This document shows, in pieces, positions 2,917 through 62,766 of a DNA stretch of 64,000 nt (position 1 is its first letter; each line of letters begins with the position of its first letter). A program made the position numbers and the translations under genes. The notes beneath the pieces were generated by a model that worked only from the letters and a program-made list of their open reading frames with translations, made no database searches and was not told where the DNA came from. This DNA comes from an uncultured delta proteobacterium (lineage in GTDB: Bacteria; Desulfobacterota; Desulfobacteria; Desulfobacterales; UBA2156), in NCBI GenBank assembly GCA_963736855.1, contig CAVTQK010000015.1:512001-576000 (forward strand), given 5' to 3'.

Positions 2917-4323
2917 TCAATCTGTTTTCCTCAAATGCCCCCTGAAGTAGGAGAAAAAAATACCGACTGTACACATTGCTGCGAAAAGAACAAAGCATAT
3001 CCGCATCGCCTTTAAAAAAAAAGGGTACTGATCCGGGGTTAATTTCTCGTTTCCGATGAAGATGGAAAAGACGACCATGACGATGGACATGCTGACCATT
3101 TGCCCCAAGAGGCGCATGGTGGCCACGGCGCCTGAGGCAATCCCGAAGAGCCGATTTTCAACCGCGCCCATAATGGCGCTCATATTGGGTGAAGAAAACA
3201 AGGCGAATCCGAAGCCGATGCAGGCGAGTGTCCCGGCGATATAAAATTTTTCCGTCTGTGGTCCGATGAATGAGAAAATGAAAAGTCCTGTTGCGGTAAT
3301 GGCCATCCCGATGGATGCCAGTATCCTCGGTTCCACCCGATCGGATGTCTTCCCGGCAAAGGGAGAAAAGATCGTCATGATTACCGGTTGGGCCACGAGC
3401 AACGTTCCGGCAGCTTGCGGGGTGAGGCCTTTGATATATTGCAGATACAGGCTGAGCAAGAATGTGATCCCGAAGGTGGCTGAATAATGGATCAGCGCAG
3501 CCAGACTGGAAAATGCAAAGACCTTGTTTTGAACAAACAGACGGACCTCGAAAATCGGATAACGGACGCGGAGCTCATAACGAATGAAAACCAAAAGCAG
3601 AATCATCCCGACGAAGATAAGGCCTACGGCCCAAAACTTTGGCAAAGCGGTGGTGCCGTAAACCAATGCCAGAATAGAGAATCCATAAAGGAAGCTGCCG
3701 AGAAGATCCAGCCTTTCCCCCCGGGCATCGGCCCACTCTCCTTTTAAGAGGGTTAATGTGATGTAAACCGATGCTCCCCCGAGAGGGACCCCCGCGATGA
3801 ACAGGCTCCTCCATCCCAATTGTTGGGTCAAGAATCCTCCCACAAAAGGGCCCGTGGACAAGCCTGCATAAACCGCCGCGACATAGATTCCAATGGCCTT
3901 TCCTCGTCTTTGTGGCGGGAAAATAGACGTGATGATGGCCATTCCGGTTGTGACGAAAAGGGCTGCGCCGATGCCTTGAAACACACGAAAGAGGATGAGG
4001 ATGCTCACCGAAGTCGAAAACGCCGCAAAAAGAGAGGAAAAGGTAAAAAGGGCGAGGCCCGATGTAAAGACCTTTTTTCTTCCGTAAAGGTCGGCGATTT
4101 TTCCGGCCGGCACCAGTACAACGGCAACGGCCAGGAGAAAAGCGTGGGCGATCCAGCCCAGTTCAACGGCATTCACGCCGAATTCTTTCTGGATCGCCGG
4201 GAGAGCCACGTTGACGGAGGAGATCATAAAGGGTCCCACGAAGGATGAAACCGTGGTCACCCACAAGGCGGTCTTTTCTTGAGTAGCCGGATCCGGAGGT
4301 TGGATTGGATGCATCGGGTTCAT
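2917..4323 (-). CDS. MFS transporter, DHA2 (EmrB/QacA-like, 14 TM)
   Basis: SSVNVALPAI, GKIADLYGRKK motif A, GPFVGGFLT motif C; many TM segments. Confidence 0.9.
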   Translation of the reverse strand: MNPMHPIQPPDPATQEKTALWVTTVSSFVGPFMISSVNVALPAIQKEFGVNAVELGWIAHAFLLAVAVVLVPAGKIADLYGRKKVFTSGLALFTFSSLFAAFSTSVSILILFRVFQGIGAALFVTTGMAIITSIFPPQRRGKAIGIYVAAVYAGLSTGPFVGGFLTQQLGWRSLFIAGVPLGGASVYITLTLLKGEWADARGERLDLLGSFLYGFSILALVYGTTALPKFWAVGLIFVGMILLLVFIRYELRVRYPIFEVRLFVQNKVFAFSSLAALIHYSATFGITFLLSLYLQYIKGLTPQAAGTLLVAQPVIMTIFSPFAGKTSDRVEPRILASIGMAITATGLFIFSFIGPQTEKFYIAGTLACIGFGFALFSSPNMSAIMGAVENRLFGIASGAVATMRLLGQMVSMSIVMVVFSIFIGNEKLTPDQYPFFLKAMRICFVLFAAMCTVGIFFSYFRGHLRKTD

Positions 4324-4796
4324 CTTGCGGTACGGGCGATATTAGGGAAAATGTCTTTGAGCTTTTCGATGTGGGTGTTTTCTTCGTGGATAATGCGGTC
4401 CAGTGTTTCAGAGGTTTTTTCCTCCGATATGAAGGGCGCCAGCATCTTGTAGAATAGGATGCTGTCTTTTTCAAAACCAATGGCGGTCTCAATCAGTTCC
4501 TCAATCGTCCGGATCGTTGACAAATCGACATCTTTGAGGGAAAAAACCTGGTCTGCGAAAAAATCATCGGATAAAGACCGGCTCATTTCTCCGAGAATAT
4601 GGTGGTCATCGTCTCTTCCGAGGGTTTCTTTTAAATCGGAAAACCATCGGGCATGACTGTTTTCCTCGTCCGCGAGCAATTCCAAAAGTTCTCGAATCTC
4701 CGGATCATCGGCGGCTTTGGCGGCTTTCTGATAAACCCTCTGGCCGTTTTCCTCGAGCCTTACGGCCAATGCGATGATGTCATGGATCGTAAACAT
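4320..4796 (-). CDS. Ferritin-like / rubrerythrin-family diiron protein
   Basis: AVRLEENG, LADEENSH, AIGFEKDS, IIHEENTH (two ExxH pairs). Confidence 0.85.
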   Translation of the reverse strand: MFTIHDIIALAVRLEENGQRVYQKAAKAADDPEIRELLELLADEENSHARWFSDLKETLGRDDDHHILGEMSRSLSDDFFADQVFSLKDVDLSTIRTIEELIETAIGFEKDSILFYKMLAPFISEEKTSETLDRIIHEENTHIEKLKDIFPNIARTAR

Positions 4797-4884
4797 GGTG
4801 AAATCCAATTGAAATCATAAAAATCTTGAGATCCGGTCGGATTCTTCCGGATGAAATACCCTGCAGAAGGCTGTGTGTTTATCT

Positions 4885-5073
4885 CTATATTTTGCGGTTC
4901 AAGTTGTATTGCCGAATCAGAACCTTTTTTTCATCATCGGGCAATGATTTCATGTAAGCACTCCATCCCGGGCACCAGTTGGTATGCCATCTCCACAATC
5001 GTCCTAAAATCGATTTCGGGTTGGCGTCGTATTTTGCCCTGAACGCGCAGGTGGAGCATTTAAGTTTTGCCAT
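4885..5073 (-). CDS. Small conserved-looking hypothetical protein with Cys/His motif
   Basis: CSTC...WRWHTNWCPGW; GGAGG RBS; start immediately follows the stop of the upstream cytochrome gene. Confidence 0.65.
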   Translation of the reverse strand: MAKLKCSTCAFRAKYDANPKSILGRLWRWHTNWCPGWSAYMKSLPDDEKKVLIRQYNLNRKI

Positions 5074-5074
5074 A

Positions 5075-7165
5075 TCAGTGTGCCTCCATGAGTGCAACAA
5101 AGCGTTTTTTCAATTCATACAGACCGTGCCACCACCTATAATCCGGAGCCATCATGGCAGCTCCCATTTTCGCGGCGCGTCCTTCCCGGTGCCCCATTTC
5201 GATCCAGGCGATCTCCAGTTGTTCGTCCGTCAGTCGTGTTTTATCCAGGATGTTTTCCCGATAAAGCCTTTCCATGTAACGACGTACGGGTCCTCCATAG
5301 ACTTCATTGTATTCATGAACGGCGCGGTCCAATTGATCGAAATGGTTACGGGTCCACAACAGGCTATGACATTGAAGACAGACGGTTTCCATTCGACCCC
5401 GGGCCTCTTTCCAATCGATCCCTTCAGGTCGGCCGGTAGGGGAGGCTTGGAGTTCCCAACTCAGCCGATGGCCCACATCATGGGAAGGCGGGGTATTTCC
5501 GGCGCCGGAAATATGGCATGCCGCGCAGGTGGGTGATCGATAGTCCACGCCGGCGGTCCAGGTGGAGGCGGCGGGTTCCCAGCGCCATGCGTCGCCAAAA
5601 ACCTGATAGAGGGTGCCGTGTTTGGATTCCCGGTAGATTTCCATTTGGGGATGTTCTGGGCCCACATGACACTTCCCACAGGCCTCGGCACGCCTCGCCT
5701 GGGATACGGCGAAACTGTGCGGTCCATGACAGGCGCCGCAATTTCCAAAGGATCGATCTGAGTTCATGCGGCCGATTCCCCGAGGCAGACCGCGTAGCTG
5801 TTCAAGCCGGGCTGATCCATCGGAGATGCCGACTCCATGGCAGCCTTCGCATCCGGTCACGATTTCTACATCTGAAAGGCGGTTTTCACGGATGAAGGGA
5901 TCCGTGGAAAGAACGATGGCAACGGTTTTGGCATGCTTGGATCGCTGGAATTCCTGATTTCGATCCAGATGGCATCTGGAACAATCTTTGGGTGTCACAA
6001 CCGGCGAGACCCACGCTTTTCCATGTTTTTTGTGAAAATTGGAAATATCCGGGTCCGACTTGGAAGCCAGATGGCAATGCATACAGGAAACTCCGTTTTT
6101 GGCATGGGCGGATTCGGACCAATCAGCCAGCACGGCGGGGGTCTCGAGATTATGGCACTTCAGACACGCATTCGCTTTCCCCCGGGTCCATTTTGGAAAC
6201 GGATCCACCAAAGGAGGTCCCCATCTCCACCAGACGATGCACGTCAGGACTACCAGGACGCACACTAAAATAAAATATGCCAGAAATACGAATAGATTTA
6301 AAACGTTTTTGCCCCGGTCCTTCTCGTCGGCCGCGGGGGCGGTCCCGAGATCCTTCACGCGCTCGAACACTTCCAGACTGTGGGGTGCTTTTTCCAGGGC
6401 ATCGGTTAAATCGGTTCCGGCAAAATGCCGTGCCATATGAACACCGTTCTTCCAGAACTTCGAACCAGTGACATCGTAGAGACGCCCGCTATGTATAATA
6501 TGGGCCGGACGCCCCTCTTTCCCATCGGGTTTCAGTGCACCGTCTCGCCCGGCCGCTTCCCGGAGCTTGCGATCGATGTAAGTGGTGGCAACAGCTGCCA
6601 CAACGACCATGAGAAAGTAGGTGCCCACTTTGACGATCCAGATGATTCCGAAGGTGGTGCTCCACAGTTCCCGCACTTCCTGGATCTTCAACAGGGTTAA
6701 TCCGATACCGGTCAACCCGACGACCCCGATACATAGACGCCCTAAAAACTTTTCGGATTTGGGCATCCCCGCCACCAGCGACCGGGGCTTGATGACCAGA
6801 TGTACGTAAATGATGGACCCGAACCAGATCACGCCGAAAAGGATGTGTAAAAAGCCCAGGACGGTCCTGGCTAGACGCTTGACCCAAAGGTGTCTTCCTT
6901 CGTCGGGAAGCAGGGTATATCCATCGGCCTTGAAGCGTTCACCCCTGAAGGTCAAGGCGCTGCCGCCGTCCGGATGAATATGGCATGCGGAACAGGCCAG
7001 TTTGCTCTGCCCGGAAAATTCAGGGGAAGCTATCGCTTGATGGTTCCATGCAGCCAATATAAACGGAATGGACATGATGAAAAAAAAGGTCATTTTCACG
7101 TGGGGCAATCGTCTTCGCGACGTTTCCGTTTCCCTGGGATTCCTTGTAAATGCCTCAATTGTCAT
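5075..7165 (-). CDS. Membrane-bound multidomain cytochrome: monoheme c + TM bundle + cytochrome b5-like domain + octaheme HAO-like domain
   Basis: 9 CxxCH motifs; b5-like GRLYDVTGSKFWKNGVHMARHFAGTDLTDALEKAPH; HAO-family GPEHPQMEIYRESKHG and MMAPDYRWWHG. Confidence 0.85.
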   Translation of the reverse strand: MTIEAFTRNPRETETSRRRLPHVKMTFFFIMSIPFILAAWNHQAIASPEFSGQSKLACSACHIHPDGGSALTFRGERFKADGYTLLPDEGRHLWVKRLARTVLGFLHILFGVIWFGSIIYVHLVIKPRSLVAGMPKSEKFLGRLCIGVVGLTGIGLTLLKIQEVRELWSTTFGIIWIVKVGTYFLMVVVAAVATTYIDRKLREAAGRDGALKPDGKEGRPAHIIHSGRLYDVTGSKFWKNGVHMARHFAGTDLTDALEKAPHSLEVFERVKDLGTAPAADEKDRGKNVLNLFVFLAYFILVCVLVVLTCIVWWRWGPPLVDPFPKWTRGKANACLKCHNLETPAVLADWSESAHAKNGVSCMHCHLASKSDPDISNFHKKHGKAWVSPVVTPKDCSRCHLDRNQEFQRSKHAKTVAIVLSTDPFIRENRLSDVEIVTGCEGCHGVGISDGSARLEQLRGLPRGIGRMNSDRSFGNCGACHGPHSFAVSQARRAEACGKCHVGPEHPQMEIYRESKHGTLYQVFGDAWRWEPAASTWTAGVDYRSPTCAACHISGAGNTPPSHDVGHRLSWELQASPTGRPEGIDWKEARGRMETVCLQCHSLLWTRNHFDQLDRAVHEYNEVYGGPVRRYMERLYRENILDKTRLTDEQLEIAWIEMGHREGRAAKMGAAMMAPDYRWWHGLYELKKRFVALMEAH

Positions 7166-7207
7166 CGGATGTCGGGAAGTTTTTACACGGGGTGGTTTCT
7201 CAACGAT

Positions 7208-7648
7208 TCATGAAATCGGAACCGTTACGACGGGGACCGGCGAGCATCTCAGCACCCGATCCGCAACGCTTCCGAAATCAAACCGACCGGTGCTTCCTTT
7301 TGTGGTGAGGACAACCATGTCGATGCCTTCCGCCTCGATCAGCTTGAGAATTTCTTCAGCCGCATCCCCCACCGCGATATGTTTGACAAATAAAACGCAC
7401 TGATCTAGAAACTTGGAACAGATTTCATCAAGTCGCTTTTCAGCCATTTCTTTTTCCCATCGGCTCATTTTTTCGAAATCCGCGGGGTCGTACTCACCAT
7501 AGGAGGCGCCCCATTCGCCATAGGACTTGAGGACATGCAGGACATGGATCTCAGCCTGATACTTTTCAGACAAAGACGTCAGGTGCGGGAGGGCCGCAGC
7601 CGCGTTTTTCGAAAGATCGGTCGGATAAAGGATTTTTTGGATCCGCAT
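7208..7648 (-). CDS. Universal stress protein (UspA family)
   Basis: KILYPTDLS N-terminus; FGSVADRVLRCSPVPVVTV C-terminus. Confidence 0.92.
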   Translation of the reverse strand: MRIQKILYPTDLSKNAAAALPHLTSLSEKYQAEIHVLHVLKSYGEWGASYGEYDPADFEKMSRWEKEMAEKRLDEICSKFLDQCVLFVKHIAVGDAAEEILKLIEAEGIDMVVLTTKGSTGRFDFGSVADRVLRCSPVPVVTVPIS

Positions 7649-7707
7649 TTATTTATTCCTCCTTCAATCATCTATTGATAAAAGCAAGGCTTTCCGGGAG
7701 GATCTCT

Positions 7708-43363: not shown

Positions 43364-44164
43364 CTAAAACTCCCTAAAGATGCCGAGGGAAAGGCCATAT
43401 TTATCATATCCTTCTTTTAACTTAAGGTAGCTGAGGTCTCCAAAGATGCCGTAGTCTTTGCCTATCCAGTGTCTATGTTTAAGGGAAGTGTATAGGGAGT
43501 TCTGCCTCACCTCTTCAGGACTTGCAAGGTAAGTAGCAAGGTAAGCCTGTTTTCCAAAGGAGAAGTCGAGGTATGTCCATTGCCAACCTTCCCTGCCATA
43601 TCCGGCGCTGATGAGCTGAGAGTAAGAGACGATGCTCCCGGGGTCGCTCTCATTTCTGAATAACCTGTACTTCCATATCCATCTATCGAGATAGAGCGTT
43701 ATCCCTGTTGATAGGATTATGTCTTTATGGACATCAAAATACCTTAAATAAGAAGCCCCCGCAGTCCATACAATATTTTTAATAGCACCAAACTTGATAT
43801 TAAAGTCATGATCTATCCTGATCTGTGGTAGATAGTCCGACCTTGTTCCTGCAGATAGGGCTGAGTACGTATATAACCTATCCCCCCAGTCTTTATATGC
43901 ACCGATGGTTCCGAGTAATGCCTCTCCCTCCTTCCTCGAGAATGCCCCGAGCTGAAGGAAGTAGGTGAGGTCTTCCCTGGGTTTGTCGTAAAAGCCGAGT
44001 GAGAGTGTATTCCACGAGCCGTAAACTCCATTTGGGGAAAGGTATTCGTAAGAAAAATTAGCCTCAAGACGATGTCTCTTCACAGATTCATCCTGCCCGA
44101 ACAAATCCTTCGGCGTAGAGATTACCAGAACAGAGAGGAACGCGAGTATAAGAGCCCTCTTCAC
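43364..44164 (-). CDS. YaiO-family outer-membrane beta-barrel
   Basis: Signal peptide; alternating aromatic beta-strands; terminal Phe; last gene of the glycan operon. Confidence 0.7.
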   Translation of the reverse strand: MKRALILAFLSVLVISTPKDLFGQDESVKRHRLEANFSYEYLSPNGVYGSWNTLSLGFYDKPREDLTYFLQLGAFSRKEGEALLGTIGAYKDWGDRLYTYSALSAGTRSDYLPQIRIDHDFNIKFGAIKNIVWTAGASYLRYFDVHKDIILSTGITLYLDRWIWKYRLFRNESDPGSIVSYSQLISAGYGREGWQWTYLDFSFGKQAYLATYLASPEEVRQNSLYTSLKHRHWIGKDYGIFGDLSYLKLKEGYDKYGLSLGIFREF

Positions 44165-45369
44165 GGCGTTCCTCCTAAACTAAAAGTATTCGGGATATTT
44201 AACACTTCCATGTACGATGACGGATACCATTTTATAAAGTCCTTGATATTGTCCAGCATGAGAAACTGGAGTATCTTCTCGGATGCCTTTCCATCCCCGA
44301 AGGGATTGCTTATCTTTGAAATGGCCCTGTAGATATCTTCGTCCTCGTAAAACTGTGAGAAGACCTCAGTGATTCTTTCTTTATCTTTACCAACAATAAA
44401 ACCGATGCCTGCATCGACAACCTCAGGTCTCTCGGTGGTATCCCTTAAGATCAGCACAGGCTTACCGAAGGTGGATGCCTCTTCCTGTATGCCTCCAGAA
44501 TCCGTCATCAGGACATGAGACCTTTTCATCAGATATATCATGGTCTGATAAGAAAGGGCCTCGGTAAACACTATATTTTCCTGTCTGTTCATTAATTCCT
44601 CAAGTACGATTTCCCTGACTTCAGGATTCTTATGGAGCGGCCACAGGAAAAGGACATCCTTATACCTCTCTGATAGAAAACGTATGGCTCTGCATATCTC
44701 TCTAAGAGGTGCCCCGATGTTTTCCCTCCTGTGAACTGTTATTAGTACAAGCCTCATAGTATTGAGTAACTTTTCGATTTTTTGGTCATAACCTGATAGC
44801 TCTTTAAGGATAGCATTTTCATTTACTAACCGCTGGGCAAGCAGAATTGCATCAACCACTGTATTGCCGGTAATTATTATCCTGTCTTTTCTTATGCCTT
44901 CTGACAAAAGGTTCTTATAAGCCCTTAAAGTCGGCACGAAATGAAAATCAACGAGCCTGCTTACAAGAACCCTCAGTGTCTCCTCTGGAAAGGGCGAGTA
45001 TTTATTGAAACTCCTCAATCCTGCTTCTACATGAAAGACAGGTTTTTTTAGCATAAATCCGACAAAGGCTGCAGCATAAGTTGTCAGTGTATCCCCCTGA
45101 ACGATTATCAGATCGGGGTCTTCACTATCGATCGCTATCCTCATCTCCTTCTGGATACATTCATGCAGTTTTTCGAGGTCAGGCTTCTCTGTCATACATC
45201 CAAAGCTGTAGTCAGGTATTAATCGAAAAAAGTCAGTGACCTGGTGCACCATATCAAGATGCTGCCCTGTGGAGATTATCCTTACATCAAACCTCTCCCT
45301 GAGACTGTAAATCACTGGCGCAAGCTTTATAGCCTCGGGCCTTGTTCCAAAAACAATGAATACCTTCAT
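44161..45369 (-). CDS. wecB: UDP-N-acetylglucosamine 2-epimerase (non-hydrolysing)
   Basis: FGTRPEAIKLAP, STGQH, QGDT, HVEAGLRS, TVHRREN, TDSGGIQEE, TERPE, NPFGDG. Confidence 0.95.
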   Translation of the reverse strand: MKVFIVFGTRPEAIKLAPVIYSLRERFDVRIISTGQHLDMVHQVTDFFRLIPDYSFGCMTEKPDLEKLHECIQKEMRIAIDSEDPDLIIVQGDTLTTYAAAFVGFMLKKPVFHVEAGLRSFNKYSPFPEETLRVLVSRLVDFHFVPTLRAYKNLLSEGIRKDRIIITGNTVVDAILLAQRLVNENAILKELSGYDQKIEKLLNTMRLVLITVHRRENIGAPLREICRAIRFLSERYKDVLFLWPLHKNPEVREIVLEELMNRQENIVFTEALSYQTMIYLMKRSHVLMTDSGGIQEEASTFGKPVLILRDTTERPEVVDAGIGFIVGKDKERITEVFSQFYEDEDIYRAISKISNPFGDGKASEKILQFLMLDNIKDFIKWYPSSYMEVLNIPNTFSLGGTP

Positions 45370-46283
45370 TTGCCGATCGCCCCATTTTCTAGAAGTTCAA
45401 ATATCAATTTTTGCTCTAAAGAAAATAGATCTGGTTTATCTGCATATCTTTTTATGAATTTCTTCCCGAGTTTTTCTTTTAATTGCGGCATCTCTTCAAG
45501 AATACCGTAGAGTAAGGGAAAGACCTGGGAAAATGCATCAGGATAAAGTCTATTCCAATCCGGTATAAATACCTCATCATTCCCTATCGCCCAGTAAAAA
45601 TCTCCCCTCCTCTTATCGTAAAGAGAAAATAGTATTCCTTTCTTTATGGCATTTTCAAGTTCAATATAGTATTTATTCTCACTCCACCCCATTTCTCTGG
45701 ACAATCTATTGTATGACCTTATCCCTCCGTAGGCCTCACAGTTATCCATCAGGTACTTTAACTTACCGTTAGGCAGGGCCATAATAAGCCCGTCTTCGTC
45801 CTGTAAATATGCTATAAGATATGCGATATCTTCGAGTTTTTCTCTGTTTTCCTGTATTATCCTTGCATCCCTTGTCTTTATGTAATAGTCATACACCATA
45901 ACAAGGAATATCCCTGCATAACCATCAACAGAGTCATAAATGAGTGTAGATTCCTCCTGCCCGGTTTTACAGTTTATTGTATAGTCGTAGATTGTACCCG
46001 TAAGTCCTGACCTGTCGGGATAATTGGTGTGTTCGAGATACCATAGAATATAATCCTTGATTATCCTGGGGTCAGCCCCTTTATGAAGCATATATATCGC
46101 CTTTATATTCAGGATATAAGGATTAATATAGTTGCTGTCTTTTTCAATCGGGATGAACTGCCGTGAGATATTTAACGCAGGATGTTCCGCACAAACAAAA
46201 GCAGGGTATTCCGCACGGAAGCCATTAAAAGCACATGAGACCGTGCATATATTAGAGAGCATCAAAATAAATAGTCTTTTCAT
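45366..46283 (-). CDS. Exported (alpha/alpha)-barrel glycoside hydrolase-like protein
   Basis: Signal/lipobox-like TVSC; DSVDGYAG, LQDEDGL, YLMDNCEAYGG; aromatic-rich helices. Confidence 0.5.
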   Translation of the reverse strand: MKRLFILMLSNICTVSCAFNGFRAEYPAFVCAEHPALNISRQFIPIEKDSNYINPYILNIKAIYMLHKGADPRIIKDYILWYLEHTNYPDRSGLTGTIYDYTINCKTGQEESTLIYDSVDGYAGIFLVMVYDYYIKTRDARIIQENREKLEDIAYLIAYLQDEDGLIMALPNGKLKYLMDNCEAYGGIRSYNRLSREMGWSENKYYIELENAIKKGILFSLYDKRRGDFYWAIGNDEVFIPDWNRLYPDAFSQVFPLLYGILEEMPQLKEKLGKKFIKRYADKPDLFSLEQKLIFELLENGAIGK

Positions 46284-48087
46284 CTGTCTTATCTGTGAAT
46301 GTCAGATAATAATAGTCTCCGTCCTGCTGGAGCATGAGATTTTCCTTATCGTGGATCCGGTATCTATCTCTTGGTATTGCAAGTGTTAATCCATCCAGTC
46401 CTTCTTGATTTTTCATTGATACAACCAATTTTTTATCATCAATTCTGAAATTATACCTTGTCTTTAAGAATTTAAGCCAAAACTTGGCAAAATGGCTCAT
46501 GGGTCTTATCTCGAGTTTATCCTCTTTCTGCAAGTCCTCTGAATAACTTAGAAAGGATTTTAGTGCAGAGGGATAGTTGAATATGTCGTAGGGATGGGAA
46601 TATATAAGCCTTACGGTCCTGTTTCTGACAGCATAATCTACAGTTTCGATAAGCCATTCTTTTACTTTGTCCTCGGGTATAGCAGCGCTCTTCATCTCAT
46701 GGAATGAGGCTGAACGCATAAGGGGCATTATCGGAAAGGCAATGACCTTTTCAGAAACCATCTTTCCGTTTATGAAGGTTCTATTCGGTGATGAGCCTGT
46801 ATCTCCTGTATAGTAGTACGCCAGAAAACCGAGCTTTTTCAGGACATTGGTGGTTATTGGTTGTGGATGGGCTCCATTGGGTGCTGCATACTCAGTGATT
46901 TTATATCCTGTTATACTCTCAAGGCACTCGTTATTTTTCTTTATGTATTCGTATATCTCTCTTTTCGAAAATTTGCCATTTTCGATATTTTCCGAAAACC
47001 AGTTATGTGCCCAGCCGCCGTGAGAACCTATTACTCCATAACTCAGCAAAGTCTGAACAAAGAATTTGCCCTTGCCGCAGGCATCGAAACCGAGATTATC
47101 CCCTAATTTGTCCCTGAAATTCCCGGCTGTTATGTGAAAGGAGTATTTAATATCTTTTCTCAGGTATCCATCCTCCAACATAAGGTGAATGCTCTCCCAA
47201 TCAATACTTGAATCAATATGCCAGTTTATTACTATACCGCCTTTCCCATTATTGGTATTCAGTAGATGCGGTATCTTTATAACCTTGAACAGAAAAGTCC
47301 TTATTATAGCCCGCAGGGGAAGGTCGTCTGAATGGGCCTTCAAATGACCGAGAGGGAGATTAACATAAAGTATTTTACCGGTACCGTAGTCTCGTATCAC
47401 CACTGCAGGATATGTCTCTCCTTTTTGTGTAACTGCATTGGCGTAAATATTGTCTTTACTAAAAGCCTCTTTGAATTCGGTTCTCGCTATAGGATACTCA
47501 AGCTTCCCATAAGCATAACCTCCGAGGAGAAGACCCATCTCACTCTTTCCAGAGGGTATCTGTAAAAAGTCCATGGCGCTTTTATCATCGATTTTTATAT
47601 AACCGAGCGTAAATGCATTTTCATGGAGCCTGCTATAGGTTATGTAATTTATCCCGATCATATCAGAAAACAGTGATTCATCGAAAAATGCTCCTTTTCT
47701 GTTTTTTATGCCAGCATCATATATAACGGCTATGCTACCACCCATGAGGAGATAATCCTTTATCCATGACTTTAATACCACTGGCAGTATCTGGGCTACA
47801 CCATCAGGAAATATTATGACGGGCTTGCTCTTCACTATATCCTCAGCCTTTAAAGAGAGGAGATGATTGACATTTATCTCATCGTGAGGCGCACCCTCTT
47901 CATCGAGAACGCTTTTATATGCCTGAAGGACATAAGAGTAATCAATCATAAGGGCCGGATTATAGACCAAAAGCACACCAAGTTTCTGTGACCTCGATAT
48001 CCTCGAGGTCTTATAGACAATGTTAATGCTGTAGATCGAAAAGATTAAGATGGCTACGATTATGACAATGATAAAAAATCTCTTCAT
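46252..48087 (-). CDS. Membrane-anchored polysaccharide deacetylase (CE4-like) with N-terminal GATase-like domain
   Basis: N-terminal TM; WHIDSSID, IGSHGGWAH, YAAPNG, IYSHP motifs. Confidence 0.7.
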   Translation of the reverse strand: MKRFFIIVIIVAILIFSIYSINIVYKTSRISRSQKLGVLLVYNPALMIDYSYVLQAYKSVLDEEGAPHDEINVNHLLSLKAEDIVKSKPVIIFPDGVAQILPVVLKSWIKDYLLMGGSIAVIYDAGIKNRKGAFFDESLFSDMIGINYITYSRLHENAFTLGYIKIDDKSAMDFLQIPSGKSEMGLLLGGYAYGKLEYPIARTEFKEAFSKDNIYANAVTQKGETYPAVVIRDYGTGKILYVNLPLGHLKAHSDDLPLRAIIRTFLFKVIKIPHLLNTNNGKGGIVINWHIDSSIDWESIHLMLEDGYLRKDIKYSFHITAGNFRDKLGDNLGFDACGKGKFFVQTLLSYGVIGSHGGWAHNWFSENIENGKFSKREIYEYIKKNNECLESITGYKITEYAAPNGAHPQPITTNVLKKLGFLAYYYTGDTGSSPNRTFINGKMVSEKVIAFPIMPLMRSASFHEMKSAAIPEDKVKEWLIETVDYAVRNRTVRLIYSHPYDIFNYPSALKSFLSYSEDLQKEDKLEIRPMSHFAKFWLKFLKTRYNFRIDDKKLVVSMKNQEGLDGLTLAIPRDRYRIHDKENLMLQQDGDYYYLTFTDKTDEKTIYFDAL

Positions 48088-49097
48088 ACCACTATCCCTG
48101 AACCTTCAGTCATTATGTATCCATAAATCATGACATTCTGACCGAGTATGATTCCCTTATTTCCAATAACTGATTTGATCTTTCCAGCATTTCCTATCCT
48201 CACCCTTTTCTTTATGGTTATAGTCCCCTGTGAAAAGATATCTCCTGAGATTGTGGTGCCCTCGCCGATCTCTATATCTCCATCGGAGAACAGATTCCCA
48301 GAAATATTAACATCTTCTTCTATGATCAAATCTCTGTAAGTTTTTATATTGCCCAGAATGAGAGCTCCCCCCATGACCTGCAGATCTTTCTTTACAATAA
48401 TGTCCTTTTCGACCCTTGTAATGGGTGGTATTATCAGGCGGTCTTTATTTACAATCCCTGTATTGTCAGAGATCTCTTCCTTGCCAGGACAATGGCCATG
48501 ATCATTATCATTTGCGCTATAGGTTGTTATAGGCATCCCGTATAAACGTCTAAACCTACAGCCCTTGCCTATTCTGAATTCATCCCCTGATGATGCGCTT
48601 ATTCCGAGATTACAATTATCATTAACCTCAACCATCCCTTCTGCATCTATCCATCTGATAATCTTCATCTTGCTTGAGATAGAAAGCCTCCCATCACAGG
48701 CTAAGGCCCTTAAGGTATTATTGCTGCCGATGACAGCATCCCCTTTAACATAAACCTCTTTGTTGAATCTTGCCTTATCCTCAGAGACGAGGTCTCCGAT
48801 TATGAAAAGGATGTGGTTAACCTCTTCTCCTACAAGTATCCTCTTGGAATGGGCAATCTCTACCTTCTCATTCTTGGACAGTGTAACCTCTCTAATCCCG
48901 GAACTGGCATCTGCAGGGATCACATTTTTAAGCATTTTTTTAAAGGACCTGCAAAAGTATCGTGGGTCCTTTGAGTAATCCATATTAATAAACAGAGGTA
49001 ATGCATCTTTTGGTCTTAATAACTCTATAATACCCGGTATAAAAGGGATCAAAAGCAGTATGAAGAAAACCAGGAATATAAACAGGAGAGTTATCAA
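48084..49097 (-). CDS. Membrane-anchored beta-helix (bactofilin-like) repeat protein
   Basis: N-terminal TM, then repeats such as ISGNLFSDGDIEIGEGTTISGDIFSQGTITI. Confidence 0.6.
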   Translation of the reverse strand: MITLLFIFLVFFILLLIPFIPGIIELLRPKDALPLFINMDYSKDPRYFCRSFKKMLKNVIPADASSGIREVTLSKNEKVEIAHSKRILVGEEVNHILFIIGDLVSEDKARFNKEVYVKGDAVIGSNNTLRALACDGRLSISSKMKIIRWIDAEGMVEVNDNCNLGISASSGDEFRIGKGCRFRRLYGMPITTYSANDNDHGHCPGKEEISDNTGIVNKDRLIIPPITRVEKDIIVKKDLQVMGGALILGNIKTYRDLIIEEDVNISGNLFSDGDIEIGEGTTISGDIFSQGTITIKKRVRIGNAGKIKSVIGNKGIILGQNVMIYGYIMTEGSGIVV

Positions 49098-50356
49098 TCC
49101 TTGTTGGCCTCTCTGTATCTCTTTGTCTTATGCCATGTGGTTTTTCTCTTTGTTGCCAGGTCAATTACTGCATCCAGGAATCCAAGCGATATATACCACA
49201 TGCTGAAGAAAAAGTTAAAGAGAAAGAGGGGAAGCAGGCGTATCCTGTTTGTGGCACCATCAAGCAGAGAGGCTGTTCCGATCTGATAGAAAGGGGCAAA
49301 GTTGCCGAAGGTGTTGAAGGCAGCCATAAACAGGAAGATAACGACGTTTTCTATGATCTGCATCTCTCCGAGAAAGAAGAGAGACAAGGAATCGGCTATC
49401 CCTGTCAGGAGCATAAACGGAACTGTATATACAAAAAGCAGTAAGAATCCATCCATCTTCTCTATAACAGATAGATTAGATGCCTTGAGTAATTGGAAAA
49501 GATACCTGAACATCACCTGTGAATGGCCTCTTGCCCATCTCCTGATCTGTCTTCCTCTCACATACCAGTCTTCTGGAACTTCCTCGTAACATTCGACCCT
49601 ATTTGCATAGACAACCTTCCACCCCTTGATTAAAAGCTTGAAGGTGAGCTCTGTGTCTTCTGTAAGGATATTGGGTTCAAACCCTCCAAGAGATAAAACA
49701 ACATCCCTTCTGAAGCCGCCGACTGTCCCTCCATACTGAGGGATGAGTCTTAGGTTATGCTTTGCCTGCTGATCCACCTGATAGCCCCCTGACCTCTCAA
49801 GGTCGATAAGCCTTGTGAGTAAATTCCTTCTGGTATTCTCTGGAACGACCCTTCCCATCACAGCACCAACCTCTGGATCTTTGAAGGAAATGGCTATATC
49901 CCTGAGACTGCCTTTTGGAGGGAGATAGTCTGCGTCAAATATTATAATGATCTCTCCAACAGCCTGCTTAAGGGCATCGTTCAGTGCTGATGGTTTTCCT
50001 CTTCTGCCTTCGCTTCTGTGCAGGGGTCTAATGTATGGATATCTTGATGCATATTCTATCAGTATATCGTATGTTTTATCTGAGGAATGGTCGTTTATCG
50101 GTATTATCTCGAGTTTAGATATTGGAAAGTCTGTTGCAATCAATCGATCGAGTATGTTGGCTGCCACCCTCTCCTCGTTATGCATTGGGACCAGCACTGA
50201 GATGCTCGGAAGCTCAGAGTCAATAATATCCTGATAATATATCCTCTGTTTACCAATAAGTCGGTTCAGAGTGAATAGGAGGTGTCTTACTGTATAAAGG
50301 ATCATGATAACCGCTACGAAGACGAGGTAAGATTGAAGGATTAGGACCATTTCCAC
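49094..50356 (-). CDS. Processive GT2 polysaccharide synthase (IcaA/PgaC/BcsA-like)
   Basis: PMHNE, NDHSSD, GKPSALN, DADY, TED, QIRRW; N- and C-terminal TM. Confidence 0.9.
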   Translation of the reverse strand: MEMVLILQSYLVFVAVIMILYTVRHLLFTLNRLIGKQRIYYQDIIDSELPSISVLVPMHNEERVAANILDRLIATDFPISKLEIIPINDHSSDKTYDILIEYASRYPYIRPLHRSEGRRGKPSALNDALKQAVGEIIIIFDADYLPPKGSLRDIAISFKDPEVGAVMGRVVPENTRRNLLTRLIDLERSGGYQVDQQAKHNLRLIPQYGGTVGGFRRDVVLSLGGFEPNILTEDTELTFKLLIKGWKVVYANRVECYEEVPEDWYVRGRQIRRWARGHSQVMFRYLFQLLKASNLSVIEKMDGFLLLFVYTVPFMLLTGIADSLSLFFLGEMQIIENVVIFLFMAAFNTFGNFAPFYQIGTASLLDGATNRIRLLPLFLFNFFFSMWYISLGFLDAVIDLATKRKTTWHKTKRYREANKD

Positions 50357-51111
50357 GCTCCTACCTCTACTCGATTATTCATCTTCCGGGCAATGACACT
50401 GCTGTAAAGTGCATATATACCGACCATGTATGTAAAATCCATGAAATGACCAAAGGCAAAGAATAAGAGCGGCATGAATATGTAGGAAAACATTTTGAGT
50501 ACATAAAGGAAGACAATGTATCGGAGGATACCGAACACTATTGAGTATAGAAGGGTTAGCACAGCAATGGAAAACATAGATATGATGCTGGAGGGCAACA
50601 GCAGCAGGGTTATTCCCATAACTACTGGAACAAAAAACCATATGGCCACTTCAGTCTTAACATAGAGCTCTGAAAAGTTCTCCATATCATAGGGAAATAT
50701 AGAGGGGGTGAGCATGAAAAAGATCGATGATATAAGGTTTATAGATGATATAAAAATAATCCATGCAACCATCGGTCTGAAGACCCTGACTTTTGGTATA
50801 AAAAAGATAGTAGCTATTGAGAATAAAAATAGCAGAAAGGATAGCAGGGGAGTGGGATGCTTTCCAATTATGCTGAGGATGTATATATTGCTTAGCATAT
50901 AAGGTTTTTCTAATATCTTTATATCATCGAATGGGAAGGAAGACAGAAGGAGAGATTTGGCAAAACAGTTCATAAAAAAGGTTATTTGAGGATACAGGAA
51001 AAGTATAGCCATTAATAATGGAACTACGAGGAACAGGAATTTAGGGAAAATGTATTTACCCTCAATAGAAAGCCTTCTATATGCCCTATGGTAAAAGATT
51101 ATATCCTTCAT
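50341..51111 (-). CDS. Polytopic membrane protein, first gene of the glycan operon
   Basis: About 6 hydrophobic segments; overlaps the GT2 start. Confidence 0.7.
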   Translation of the reverse strand: MKDIIFYHRAYRRLSIEGKYIFPKFLFLVVPLLMAILFLYPQITFFMNCFAKSLLLSSFPFDDIKILEKPYMLSNIYILSIIGKHPTPLLSFLLFLFSIATIFFIPKVRVFRPMVAWIIFISSINLISSIFFMLTPSIFPYDMENFSELYVKTEVAIWFFVPVVMGITLLLLPSSIISMFSIAVLTLLYSIVFGILRYIVFLYVLKMFSYIFMPLLFFAFGHFMDFTYMVGIYALYSSVIARKMNNRVEVGAWKWS

Positions 51112-51132
51112 ATTCGTGACCTAAAATATTGA

Positions 51133-51511
51133 GTCGAGTAGACCAGTTCCTCCCGATACTAAACAGTTTGAGGTTTGTTTTCTCTATTTGCCGCCTGATT
51201 TCCCGGCGGTACCACTCTCTTTCAACTATGTACCCGTTGGCCCCGGCCCCTCACAGAAACGGACGGGAGATTTCTCCCGTCATGGCGGGACTCTTCAGGC
51301 AGGTTCACATGCCTGCGGTATAAATTCAAGAGTAATCTTTCACTATCCTGGGTCTTGGTAAAGGAAAACGATTGAGTTGCTCCTGATATTCTTCCTAGTT
51401 GAAACTCTTCCGCTGACTTTGCCTGTTGAGCCACTTGAACCACATAAGATTGACCTCATAGGCAAATTTATTCAACGTTGCTGCATTTCCCGCAAAACCG
51501 TAGTAGTTATA
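51133..51511 (-). pseudogene. Decayed 3' fragment of a group II intron (maturase X-domain remnant + domains V/VI)
   Basis: Minus-strand translation YNYYGFAGN...WFKWLNRQSQRKSFN*EEY...RFPLPRPRI with internal TAG (51395-51397); then DV-like GAAGAG...CGTCCGTTTCTGTGAGGGG and a 3' end CTACTCGAC. Confidence 0.85.
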
Positions 51512-51971
51512 ATCTGAATCTTGCACGTTATTCAGGTTTTATGAAAAACCGTTTCGATTTTTCAATGAAGGGGGAGTCAACCTTAGATTCGAATGCTTCG
51601 TTTTAAATTGATCGTCTTTGTGCATTTTCTATGGGGGTATTCGATCATAACTTGTGATATTTATTTTATCTTGATAGTAATCATGGGTGAAATAATAGAA
51701 GAAGCTTATCTGCAGGATAGGCACGGTCCCCTTTTTCATTATCTGTAATCTAAGAAATGTGGACATTCATTGGCCGTAGGCGATGGATTCTCAATTATCC
51801 GAAGGATGAGGTAGTTTCAAGGTCAATTAATCAGTATGATATTGAAATTCCATTCAAATTGAGTGCAGATCGCCAATTTTGCCTCTATTGAATTTTCTTT
51901 TGGAAGTCGGAATCCAGGGGATATTCCGGATCTGAAACGCAGTCATCAAAAAGCTTCAAGGAACTCATTCG

Positions 51972-52889
51972 TCATCCGGCCAGCCCGAGCCAGCAGGACA
52001 GGCTCAGAGCCGAGAGCAGGGTGCTGGCCGATATTGTGATCACGGCCAATTCCAAATCCCCGTTCATTTCTCCGGCCATGGTATAGATCAGTGTGGCCGA
52101 AGGACAGGCCAGCAGGATCAATGCCGGCAAGAAGTCGGCTGATGGGATCCCCAAGATTCGAAACATCGCCAGTCCCAATGCTGGAAGGACCACGAGTTTG
52201 AACATACCGGCGCCGATCCAGTCGCGGACCTGATCCTTGATTTGGCGCAACGAGATCGAGGCGCCGATGAGCAGCAGGGCCAGGGGCAGAGCCATGCCGC
52301 TTAAAATGGTCAAGCTCCGGTCCACGACTTCAGGAAAGGAAAACCGGGTCAGGGATGCGATGATACCTGCGGCAGCGGACAGGATCACCGGATTTCCCGC
52401 GATTTTCAGAACACCGGTTCGAACCGGATGCCCCCGGGATTGAACGCTGAAACGTTGGAGTATGAACACGGCGAGAATATTTTGTAAAACCATGATGAAA
52501 CCCGCCAGAATCCCTGCCCGAACGAGTCCGTCTGGGCCTAGGAAAAAATAAGCCACGGCCAGGCCGATATATCCCAAATTCCCGTGAATGGCGCTTTGGA
52601 CAAAGGTGGCCTTTCGGGAAGGCGCTAATGCCAGGGATCGTGCCGTGAGCCATGATAGCGCGAATACTACTATTATCGCCGCCAGACTGATGAGGACCAC
52701 TTCAGGATGGAAATGAGTGGTGAAGCTGGATTTGGATACGGCCTGAAAGATCATGGCCGGGATGGCAAAATAAAAGACGAGACGATTGGCCGGACCCATC
52801 AGTTCGTGGGTCATAAAGCGTTTTTCCCTGGCGATCCATCCTAAGATGATGATGGTAAATACAGGAATGATAGTGGTCAGGACAGCCAT
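51972..52889 (-). CDS. AEC (auxin efflux carrier) family transporter
   Basis: NRLVFYFAIPA, GNLGYIGL, NPVIL, KLVVLP; start at MAVLTT. Confidence 0.88.
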   Translation of the reverse strand: MAVLTTIIPVFTIIILGWIAREKRFMTHELMGPANRLVFYFAIPAMIFQAVSKSSFTTHFHPEVVLISLAAIIVVFALSWLTARSLALAPSRKATFVQSAIHGNLGYIGLAVAYFFLGPDGLVRAGILAGFIMVLQNILAVFILQRFSVQSRGHPVRTGVLKIAGNPVILSAAAGIIASLTRFSFPEVVDRSLTILSGMALPLALLLIGASISLRQIKDQVRDWIGAGMFKLVVLPALGLAMFRILGIPSADFLPALILLACPSATLIYTMAGEMNGDLELAVITISASTLLSALSLSCWLGLAG

Positions 52890-60707: not shown

Positions 60708-61307
60708 ATGAGCAAGAAAGAGGCGGCCTTGTCTGAAGATGATCTGAAGCCCTTCTGGAAAAAGGGGGTATTACCGATTCTTTTTATCGGCATCGGAATC
60801 ATCGTCGCCTTCCCCCTGTTCAGCATCACCTATTATACCATGGTCCGGACTTCGACACCCGGATTCTGCGCCTCCTGCCACGAGATTGAACCGGCTTATC
60901 AGGCATGGAAAATGTCCACCCATGTCAACAATGCCCAGGGCTTTGTCGCCGACTGCATGGACTGCCATCTCCCCGCTCCCCATGATACCTTCAATTTCTT
61001 TTTTACCAAGACGGCCCATGGCATCAAGGATGTCGTGATTCACTTCACGGGGAAGCCTTATGATCGGGAGGAGAATCGGCAGGCGGCGTATGCATCCTTT
61101 AAGAACGAGCAGTGCCAGAAGTGCCATCGGAACATCCTGAATATTCCCGATAAACGGGGCGCCATGCTGGCGCATCGGGATGTTCTCTATCCGCGGCCGG
61201 GATATGAAAAACGATGTGTGGATTGCCACAGAAACCTCGTTCACAACGACAGCCCGCTTTACCGGTATAAGCAGTACCAAACCGCATATCGGGGTTTGGG
61301 CTTATAG
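60708..61307 (+). CDS. NapC/NirT-family tetraheme quinol dehydrogenase
   Basis: N-terminal TM; CASCH, CMDCH, CQKCH, CVDCH. Confidence 0.9.
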   Translation: MSKKEAALSEDDLKPFWKKGVLPILFIGIGIIVAFPLFSITYYTMVRTSTPGFCASCHEIEPAYQAWKMSTHVNNAQGFVADCMDCHLPAPHDTFNFFFTKTAHGIKDVVIHFTGKPYDREENRQAAYASFKNEQCQKCHRNILNIPDKRGAMLAHRDVLYPRPGYEKRCVDCHRNLVHNDSPLYRYKQYQTAYRGLGL

Positions 61308-61365
61308 AAGCTTGAAAAAGCATCAAACGGAGATTATAACCCAGAAGGAGAAAGGGGGGCTTGCT

Positions 61366-62766
61366 ATGAAAAAAGGGGGGATTTTCGCCCTTTTAGCGGC
61401 AGGTATGGGGATGGCTCTGATGGTGTGGGTCGTACATGCGGATGCCCAGAACGCCGGTAACCTGCCGAAGGCCAAAGAGTTTAGAATCGAACGGAGCATG
61501 CCCAAGGAGGCGGTGGCCTGCATCGAATGCCACAAGCGGGAGCATCCGGGCCTGTTTGCGGACTGGGCCAATAGCCGGCACGCCAACGCCAACATTACCT
61601 GCTACGATTGCCACAAGGCCGAGGAGTTCGAACCGGATGTGAGCAAGGCGCATTACAAACAGTACCAGCGCTCCGATGTCAAATATGGGACCAAGGAATA
61701 CCGGGTTCCCGTGGCTGCAGCCGTGACACCCAAAGATTGTTCCCGATGCCATCCTGATGAAGCCAAACAGTACAGCCTGAGCAAACATGCCAATACGATG
61801 GAGATCATATGGAAGATCGATCTCTGGCTTCAGAAAGGCATGAACAGCGACTTCGAGCGGGCCAGCGGTTGCTATCACTGCCATGGAACGGTGTTGAAGA
61901 TGAAAGGGGATGTCCTTGATTCCGAGAGCTGGCCCAATGTGGGTGTGGGCCGCGTGAATTTCGACGGTAGCAAAGGGAGCTGCACAAGCTGTCATACCCG
62001 TCACCGGTTTTCCATTATGGAAGCCCGGAAACCCGAGGCCTGCGGACAATGCCACCTGGGGCCGGATCACCCCCAGATCGAAATCTACATGGAGTCCAAG
62101 CATGGCGATCTGTATACCGCCCATGGACATGAGTTCAATTGGAACGCCGCTCCCGGAACGTGGACTCCCGGGGTGGATTACCGAGGGCCCACCTGCGCCT
62201 CCTGCCATATGTCCGGGGCCGGTACCGTGATGACCAGCCACGATGTAACCGAAAGACTCTCCTGGGAGATCCAGGCGCCTCTGACGATTCGACCTTCGGA
62301 ATTTGCAGCTTTTCCCGCCAAGACCAACTGGCAGGTCGAACGGGATAAGATGAAGGTTGTCTGCATGCAATGCCATGGCAAAGTGTGGGTGGATGGACAT
62401 TATGACAAACTGGATAAGGTCGTGACGGAATACAACGAAAACTATTACAAACCCGCTAAAAAGATGTTCGACGATCTGAATGAGAAGAAACTCCTCGATT
62501 CCACTAAGTTTTTTGATGAAAGGCTCGAAGTGGAGTTTTACGAGCTGTGGCATCATGAGGGTCGCCGGGCCCGAATGGGTGCGGCCATGATGGCGCCGGA
62601 TTACACCTGGTGGCATGGATTTTATGAATGTAAAAATCGGTTCAATGCGTTCATGGAAGAGAGTCGGGACCTGATCCGGCATAACAAGAAGGCCTATGTG
62701 GCCACCGACTTCCCCAACGCCACAGGAACCACCGTTAGACCTAAGGAGGTATTCCCTAAGCCCTGA
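61366..62766 (+). CDS. Octaheme hydroxylamine oxidoreductase-family cytochrome c
   Basis: Signal peptide; 8 CxxCH; [27 protein letters not shown]. Confidence 0.9.
   Translation: [466 protein letters not shown]

Follow-up and report, generated by a model that had tools for sequence, protein, structure and literature searches.

A cytochrome b5-containing membrane module fused to an octaheme cytochrome: a candidate trans-membrane electron conduit in anaerobic bacteria

We describe a gene of an uncultured delta proteobacterium (Desulfobacterales), found at positions 5075 to 7165 of a 64,000-nucleotide stretch of contig CAVTQK010000015.1 (hereafter the window), that joins in a single chain a redox membrane module and an octaheme cytochrome c of the hydroxylamine oxidoreductase (HAO) family. 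With about as much confidence as doubt, we propose that the module relays electrons from a cytoplasmic cytochrome b5-like domain, via a membrane helix bundle and a monoheme c domain, to a predicted nitrite-, nitric oxide- or hydroxylamine-reducing heme. The proposal builds on features established by sequence, alignment and structural model: the order of the domains, the ligands of the c- and b5-type hemes, the location of these domains on opposite sides of the membrane, the absence of the HAO cross-link tyrosine and the occurrence of the module as a protein by itself. A broader reading, possible but held with clearly more doubt than confidence, is that the module represents a new class of inner-membrane conduit in hundreds of anaerobe species, combining a cytb5M domain, an inner histidine, an outer histidine/lysine pair and a Cyc2-like heme c, and feeding N-oxide reductases independently of the quinone pool.

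Structure and integrity of the fusion gene

Motif, hydropathy and Pfam analyses recovered every part that the initial annotation had listed for this protein, and in the same order: a signal-like stretch (residues 23-46), a CSACH motif at residue 58, three hydrophobic helices (~98-125, 140-160 and 170-198), a b5-like stretch, a strong fourth helix (293-311, Kyte-Doolittle 3.15) and an octaheme domain. Its nine CxxCH motifs, one at residue 58 and eight at 334-600, account for 18 of its 21 cysteines, the other three lying within membrane helices. The Pfam CopD model matches residues 141-207 above its cut-off (38 bits), Cyt-b5 matches residues 220-267 of the full protein slightly below it (22.3 bits, cut-off 23.7) and Multi-haem_cyto matches residues 475-641. 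Among solved structures, the Ignicoccus octaheme 4QO5, Nitrosomonas HAO and the archaeal b5 domains 6NZX and 6VZ6 come closest. Because three cluster members and the G405 ortholog begin there, the true start is probably the GTG at 7099, giving a protein of 674 residues. The signal peptide would be cleaved after A46, a position held by alanine in 118 of the 141 non-redundant modules, clustered at 75% identity, that were used for conservation counts.

The fusion is genuine. A homologue search with residues 40-330 returned 43 clusters from 6434 candidates, and 39 of these carry all nine CxxCH motifs; among the other four, three lack the N-terminal CxxCH and are apparently partial, and one stops after the module. 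A contig from another sample (X2 record 9) spans positions 4300-7673 with zero gaps and 50 differences (98.5% identity), and no joints were seen across the fusion in 4/4 runs compared, all of them as Logan contigs rather than raw reads. An assembly chimera, which the initial annotation had named as a danger, is ruled out by the spanning contig together with the recurrence of the architecture in homologue clusters. The full fusion also recurs in 5 of 40 relatives, among them two of the five same-genus genomes, and the gene is for that reason considered accessory. A promoter and terminator scan gave chance-level results only, and a plasmid search returned no match.

The front module and its distribution

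Judged by sequence, the front ~270 residues of the protein are a family of their own, mostly stand-alone, made up of a Cyc2-like mini heme-c domain, a CopD/HemJ-like four-helix bundle and a bis-histidine cytb5M domain inserted ahead of helix 4. Full-length matches to residues 46-320 were obtained in 48 of 400 genomes of the phylum, 10 of them fused and 38 unfused according to frame length, and 23 of the 30 best loci terminate within 10 residues of the WRWG motif of helix 4, the point at which the fusion continues into the octaheme. A scan of GTDB with a pattern that included H122 yielded 483 matches, 472 of which were confirmed as module stretches; the best 80 of these 472 comprise 65 unfused, 13 fused and two fused but cut by the contig end. 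H122 itself was re-counted on 41 non-redundant modules from a hidden Markov model search. Hosts include Desulfobacterota, Geobacteraceae, Nitrospirota, Calditrichota, Rokubacteria, Myxococcota and one archaeon, with Desulfosarcina widdelii (fused), Geomonas silvestris and Citrifermentans bremense (both unfused) as cultured carriers.

Three heme-binding elements, the CxxCH motif, the H107/K179 pair and the H243/H247/H262 triad, are together invariant in 141/141 modules. In the module tree all 40 fused rows fall within one 52-row clade (SH-aLRT 96), a grouping that gives no support to several independent origins of the fusion. No other C-terminal partner was found among full-module proteins, nor among longer proteins, where the search was weak. 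A 206-residue 'CopD' cluster in the Atlas might be a b5-less form, the single example fetched having ended at a contig end. In databases, members were met only under automatic names, namely 'CopD family protein', 'multiheme c-type cytochrome' and 'predicted heme/steroid binding protein'.

The cytb5M and mini heme-c domains and their topology

The central domain, which had been read as b5-like, has the b5 fold and belongs to the prokaryotic cytb5M class. It matches 6NZX (E 1.6e-15) and 6VZ6 (E 2.3e-10), as against E >= 0.3 for classical b5, and Foldseek superposes it on the solved cytb5M domains at an rmsd of 1.1-1.2 Å. In 6VZ6, H42 and H61 are the axial ligands, with H46 and S34 in contact (10.1101/2021.11.30.470528); these correspond to H243/H262, H247 and S235, and H243, H247 and H262 are all present in 141/141 modules. 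The domain thus resembles known cytb5M domains (6NZX, 6VZ6; 10.1101/2021.11.30.470528 and 10.1101/2021.11.17.468889) in fold, axial histidine pair and third histidine, and differs from them in its place within a membrane bundle, where it interrupts the chain between helices 3 and 4. The accessible part of the cytb5M origin paper describes neighbourhoods of CPR ferric reductases alone and mentions neither cytochrome c nor CopD nor multiheme proteins. Repeats of the domain also occur: P0017 and P0023 are fusions with a tandem duplicated cytb5M domain, the latter out of frame beyond helix 4, and three to six repeats, as in P0098, P0100, P0130 and others, are common among the representatives matched.

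Hemes of the c type are attached outside the membrane. Since only helix 4 separates the b5 domain from the octaheme, which is outside, the b5 domain is predicted to lie inside, and the signal peptide followed by three helices gives the same side from the N-terminal end. Loops on the predicted inside are also richer in lysine plus arginine (3.3 and 5.3 vs 1.8 in the outside loop; 30 modules). We accordingly retain the predicted arrangement of the initial annotation, with a cytoplasmic b5 domain and both c-type domains on the opposite side.

The mini heme-c domain, ~40 residues long and with its CxxCH in 141/141 modules, is by profile comparison homologous to the Cyc2 domain but divergent, and is not Cyc2. 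It aligns with the Cyc2-type profile in hhalign at 97.9%, with templates chosen by the query profile, and its own profile also retrieves proteins of 400-460 residues with a Cyc2 motif and a barrel-like body (9 of 12 regions fetched). Cyc2 carries the motif AXPXFAR[Q/K][T/Y] ahead of its CxxCH (10.1101/228056, accessible part); the strict form PxFAR[QK][TY] is found in 0/141 modules and a loosened form in 119/141. As in the Cyc2 cytochrome-porin (same source, same part), a short N-terminal monoheme directly follows the signal peptide, with the same motif layout and profiles that align; unlike Cyc2, the module has no beta-barrel porin and, in the model, an inner-membrane helical bundle instead. 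The domain further matches the first heme of OmhA (6QVM, E 2.2e-5), and the module alignment contains, in residues 46-100, no conserved methionine or histidine as a candidate sixth ligand of the N-terminal heme.

We count in favour of the conduit that the mini heme-c domain also occurs in a NarI-like protein (L128) and in Cyc2-like porins, both of which are trans-membrane electron-transfer settings. The former (L128:280-2460, minus strand; G327:C56) joins it to a membrane cytochrome b resembling NarI, to a 4Fe-4S dicluster and to a pair of CCG domains, and may be a conduit of the heterodisulfide-reductase type that leads from periplasm to cytoplasm in a single chain. Cyc2-like cytochrome-porin genes (L120-L127, L131) are found in several genomes of the phylum, mostly anaerobes, and the three tested had no Pfam match. 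A small protein (L130:1845-2300, minus strand) is made up of the mini heme-c domain, a signal peptide before it and a single membrane helix at the C-terminus.

The octaheme domain

With eight CxxCH motifs, an HAO-type fold (Foldseek E 9e-16 to 4QO5 and 9e-12 to 1FGJ) and C-terminal helices, the domain belongs to the HAO family. It was aligned over 38 of the homologue clusters, leaving out five partial or broken ones. Tyr467 of NeHAO, which forms the cross-link, aligns with W678 in a column of 30 Trp, 4 Thr and 4 Gln; position 679 is Trp in 38/38 rows and Y676 lies two positions before W678. Tyrosine at 678 or 679, as expected of oxidative HAO/HDH (P460) enzymes, occurs in 0/38 octahemes. The distal Asp-His pair corresponds to E504/H505, with H505 conserved in 38/38 rows and position 504 occupied by Asp in 20, Glu in 17 and Ala in one; His459 of NeHAO corresponds to M671, Met in 34/38. 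HAOs without the cross-link tyrosine reduce nitrite, nitric oxide and hydroxylamine (PMC8042395, accessible part). Because the tyrosine is absent and the distal histidine is kept, the domain fits a reductive HAO of the HAOr/IhOCC type, with heme 4 as the putative five-coordinate site and a predicted reductive activity. It shares with IhOCC (4QO5), Kuenenia HAOr Kustc0458 (6H5L) and epsilonproteobacterial Hao the eight CxxCH motifs, HAO spacing, C-terminal helices, distal histidine and lack of the tyrosine. Unlike them it is compact (~370 residues), has Glu replacing Asp before the histidine and, instead of being served by a separate cytochrome partner, is attached behind a membrane helix to its own redox module.

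The fused octahemes are rejected as a clade (p-AU 7.6e-6) in a test on 21 rows, 13 fused and 8 separate, chosen to span a tree of 48, a result that repeated splits could explain in part. The modules of L031 and L032 group with P0025, yet their octahemes lie in a very distant subfamily; this indicates that the octaheme partner was exchanged at least once, with later splits. In L003 a module and an octaheme of the L031/L032 type are two genes, 28 nt apart. HAO-like octahemes are found in 225 of the 401 Desulfobacterota genomes sampled.

The membrane bundle and the proposed electron path

In the AlphaFold model of the module (pLDDT 84, ~90 in the bundle helices), all four helices pack into a single bundle, and the b5 domain sits in the connection from helix 3 to helix 4. 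H107 and K179 are conserved in 141/141 modules; H122 is found in 134 of these, and in 34 of the 41 obtained without an H122-containing pattern, and Y120 and E138 follow it in conservation. C309 is invariant in fused forms only. H107 and H122 are 15 residues, or ~22 Å, apart along helix 1, the spacing known from cytochrome b helices. Like HemJ (PF03653) and CopD (PF05425) bundles, the module has a helix-1 His...Trp pattern, and its invariant helix-3 lysine may correspond to that of HemJ; unlike them, it is flanked by c-heme and b5 domains and has an extra histidine at the inner end of helix 1. In the HemJ family, represented here by sequences from the phylum of G439, a histidine of helix 1 and a lysine of helix 3 are likewise invariant, and this pair may ligate its heme. 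Modules gave no match to PF03653, and HemJ was above cut-off in 0/151 for Desulfobacterota.

The CopD relationship raises the alternative of a copper importer or reductase of the CopD type, which we regard as extremely improbable. Pfam CopD is above cut-off in 30/30 modules and a conserved membrane histidine matters in CopD/YcnJ (PMC13344008, accessible part), whereas the NCBIfam model copper_CopD reaches 21-25 bits against a cut-off of 195, with ~100 residues matching, and the neighbours scanned include no CopC-like gene, while a multicopper oxidase was seen once across 17 loci (16 fused ones and the split L033).

Under the reading that we prefer, a soluble cytoplasmic reductant would reduce the b5 domain, from which electrons would pass to an inner site at H122, with Y120 and E138, holding a heme that may be five-coordinate or completed by a neighbouring subunit. 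They would then reach a b-type heme bound by H107/K179 within the membrane's outer half, much as the corresponding pair may bind one in HemJ, and continue through the Cyc2-like heme c into the octaheme and its putative five-coordinate heme. The job of the chain would be N-oxide removal or respiration in an anaerobe, and unfused modules would serve separate periplasmic partners, whether octaheme HAO-like, ONR/NrfA or NorC. We favour this chain because it is the simplest one that uses every invariant ligand. Its weak link is the inner step, because the partner helix offers no second histidine; of the heme chain that the initial annotation envisaged through the bundle, the outer part retains an invariant candidate pair in H107/K179 and the inner part lacks a conserved histidine partner for H122 in helices 2-4.

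If the inner site holds no heme, a quinol-oxidising NapC substitute with a b5 side branch becomes the more likely reading. Such a quinol dehydrogenase would replace NapC/NrfH, passing electrons from menaquinol at the H107/K179 heme to the monoheme and the octaheme, with b5 acting as a redox or gas sensor, a buffer or a second acceptor; we currently consider it rather unlikely. It would agree with the location of the only strictly invariant membrane site on the outer side, with the position of the fused octaheme's subfamily behind NapC/NirT elsewhere, with the lack of a co-occurring cytoplasmic donor gene and with the nature of the closest heme-binding relative, HemJ, a b-type hemoprotein and membrane oxidoreductase (PMC13564367, accessible part). 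It leaves aside, however, that the b5 ligands are equally invariant (141/141) and the b5 domain duplicated in P0017 and P0023, and the NapC encoded in the module's own gene cluster in L035 and L036 would be redundant.

Several results weigh against the cytoplasm-to-periplasm chain. The membrane heme of the bundle is a predicted one. H122 is missing from 7 of the 41 modules in the unbiased set, and helices 2-4 contain no conserved histidine in 141 modules. The classical di-heme bis-histidine pattern, with two histidine pairs on two parallel helices, is not found, helix 1 alone carrying conserved histidines. Fold matches of the bundle (Z 8-12; 9-12 to 4D2, CydB, cytochrome b6 and FdnI) are within the range of generic helical bundles. 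The hhalign match to the HemJ family is weak (60%) and covers helix 1 only (His/Trp), and K179 is in register with the HemJ lysine only in a joint MAFFT alignment. The full-length AlphaFold model has a pTM of 0.60, which leaves the arrangement of the domains uncertain. On the genomic side, a NapC and a paralogous octaheme coexist with the fusion in the genome; an HAO-like match is lacking in 6 of 38 module genomes, including the closed genome G166; 52 of 65 unfused loci have no N-oxide neighbour, and 54 further immediate neighbours of unfused modules are mostly unrelated genes. Around fused genes, for which 54 of 76 listed neighbours were scanned, only scattered Usp genes and the napC-octaheme pair were seen, and an NAD(P)H/flavin reductase or ferredoxin donor was not a recurrent neighbour.

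A complex prediction for the module (46-318) and the octaheme (325-696) scored 0.00, gave no verdict and was not used as evidence. Helices 1-3 of CydA were tried as a homologue of the bundle and gave no match. In many frames of 580-900 residues (G020, G018, G036, G097, G060, G120 and others), the match to cytochrome bd subunit I is confined to its N-terminal half, suggesting that CydA-like sequences are fused there to other domains.

Neighbouring genes and alternative functions

HAO-like, NorBC or ONR/NrfA-like genes lie within 5 kb of unfused modules at 13 of 65 loci, in Nitrospirota, Geobacteraceae, a Desulfobulbaceae genome and a deltaproteobacterial metagenome-assembled genome, where a rough expectation, using assumed copy numbers and with many genomes being kin, is 0.6-1.7. 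An HAO-like gene is present in 32 of 38 unfused-module genomes vs 182 of 352 others, the genomes again being kin and not independent. Hemerythrin-like, HPP/CBS and Usp genes recur near modules. Upstream of 105 module genes, HcpR- and FNR-like boxes gave 4 strong matches each vs 0.6 and 1.6 in shuffles, with no fixed position.

These neighbourhoods bear on a further alternative, heme handling or nitric oxide sensing, in which the cytb5M domain, kin of MAPR/PGRMC1, would hold heme and the His/Lys bundle would pass or monitor heme for heme-rich periplasmic enzymes. We deem this unlikely. In its favour, every class of enriched neighbour (NorBC, ONR/NrfA, HAO-like) is rich in heme, the hemerythrin-like, HPP/CBS and Usp genes mentioned above lie nearby, cytb5M has no known function in 10.1101/2021.11.30.470528, and an H122 without a partner ligand could suit an exchange site. 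Electron transfer is nonetheless better suited to a one-to-one enzyme fusion kept through a change of octaheme and to an invariant covalent heme c, and the modules have no signalling output domain, a longer-fusion search having found none (weak evidence).

Decidedly unlikely, in our estimate, is a conduit with another substrate or direction, acting on a sulfur oxyanion, in O2/peroxide stress, or inwards from a periplasmic oxidation to b5. Cyc2-type domains do take in electrons from Fe(II) (10.1101/228056, accessible part), the substrates of the fused octaheme's subfamily are putative, and rubrerythrin-like and Usp genes flank the window copy; the missing tyrosine nevertheless favours reduction, and the recurrent neighbours are N-oxide enzymes.

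Relation to described systems

Like the NapC/NirT-NrfH quinol dehydrogenases and b/c fusion cytochromes, the module is a membrane anchor that likely feeds a periplasmic multiheme enzyme; unlike NapC, with which it shows no sequence relation (hhalign 4%), it has no tetraheme PF03264 domain and does have a cytoplasmic heme domain. Geobacter CbcL is a b/c fusion cytochrome; the module differs from such proteins in lacking a di-heme bis-histidine cytochrome b pattern.

No description of the module or the fusion was found in the literature searched by full text, a scope outside which supplements and most subscription journals fall. The accessible part of a Desulfuromonadia cytochrome survey contains no mention of cytochrome b5 or CopD, and that of two multiheme-evolution papers no mention of the module; the supplements of all three could list such proteins. 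Matches to 'Cytochrome b5' in three Geobacter papers and one iron-oxidizer paper were actually to b558/b561. The module and its pairing with N-oxide cytochromes thus appear to be undescribed, though each domain has known kin.

The module is common in sulfate reducers, Geobacteraceae and Nitrospirota, and the fusion places an enzyme and its candidate donor module in one gene, so that a single construct could test donor, direction and substrate. It also gives a handle on the role of prokaryotic cytb5M domains, the proposed ancestors of PGRMC1/MAPR, and the use of a Cyc2-type heme domain outside porins matters where that domain serves as an iron-oxidation marker. If the proposed relay is true, prokaryotic cytb5M domains would gain their first function from it, and the single fused chain would amount to a complete wire of ten to twelve hemes together with its catalyst.

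Genomic context of the fusion

The features of the window discussed here are collected in Table 1. The NapC/NirT-family partner that the initial annotation had placed at 60708 was confirmed as a member of the tetraheme family. Its proposal that the fusion could work without NapC finds no support here, given this NapC and the related octaheme beside it in the window, and given L035 and L036, where the fusion directly follows a napC-octaheme pair.

Table 1. Position, strand and supporting evidence of the fusion gene, its parts and related genes of the window
Feature	Position	Strand	Evidence or details
Fusion open reading frame	5075..7165	-	696 residues counted from first ATG
Probable start (GTG 7099) and Sec-type signal peptide, residues 23-46	7028..7099	-	Hydropathy; start of 674-residue cluster members and G405 ortholog
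Cyc2-like mini monoheme c domain, residues 47-88	6902..7027	-	CSACH at nt 6994-6980
Helices 1-3, CopD/HemJ-like bundle	6575..6886	-	H107 nt 6847-6845, H122 6802-6800, K179 6631-6629
cytb5M (MAPR-related) domain, predicted cytoplasmic	6341..6532	-	Axial H243 nt 6439-6437, H262 6382-6380
Helix 4, ending WWRWG; stand-alone members end here	6221..6298	-	Hydropathy 3.15; completes bundle in model
Compact HAO-family octaheme c, fitting the reductive type, with C-terminal helices	5075..6178	-	Relatives 4QO5, 6H5L, 1FGJ
NapC/NirT-family tetraheme cytochrome	60708..61307	+	PF03264, 127 bits
Separate HAO-like octaheme	61366..62766	+	46% identical to fused domain, same subfamily

The host is a sulfate reducer, with dsrA and hcp above cut-off and only a marginal NrfA-family match, in an 8-heme frame. 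It has two further HAO-like genes, one of them behind NapC in the window. Positions 60708-62766 of the window and the loci G000 C21:199837-201351 and C15:388321 hold the napC and HAO-like pair, a third, IhOCC-like octaheme with an Asp-Val distal pair, another 8-heme cytochrome with a weak NrfA-family match, and a 16-heme cytochrome.

Between 2917 and 7648, the fusion shares its strand with genes for a Usp protein, a rubrerythrin-like ferritin and an MFS transporter, and a Usp gene adjoins fused genes also in L047, L092 and L097. Elsewhere in the window, the segment at 44000-52000 has a G+C fraction of 0.40-0.42 vs ~0.52 and glycosyltransferase-like open reading frames, recognized by eye from their translations, and was possibly acquired.

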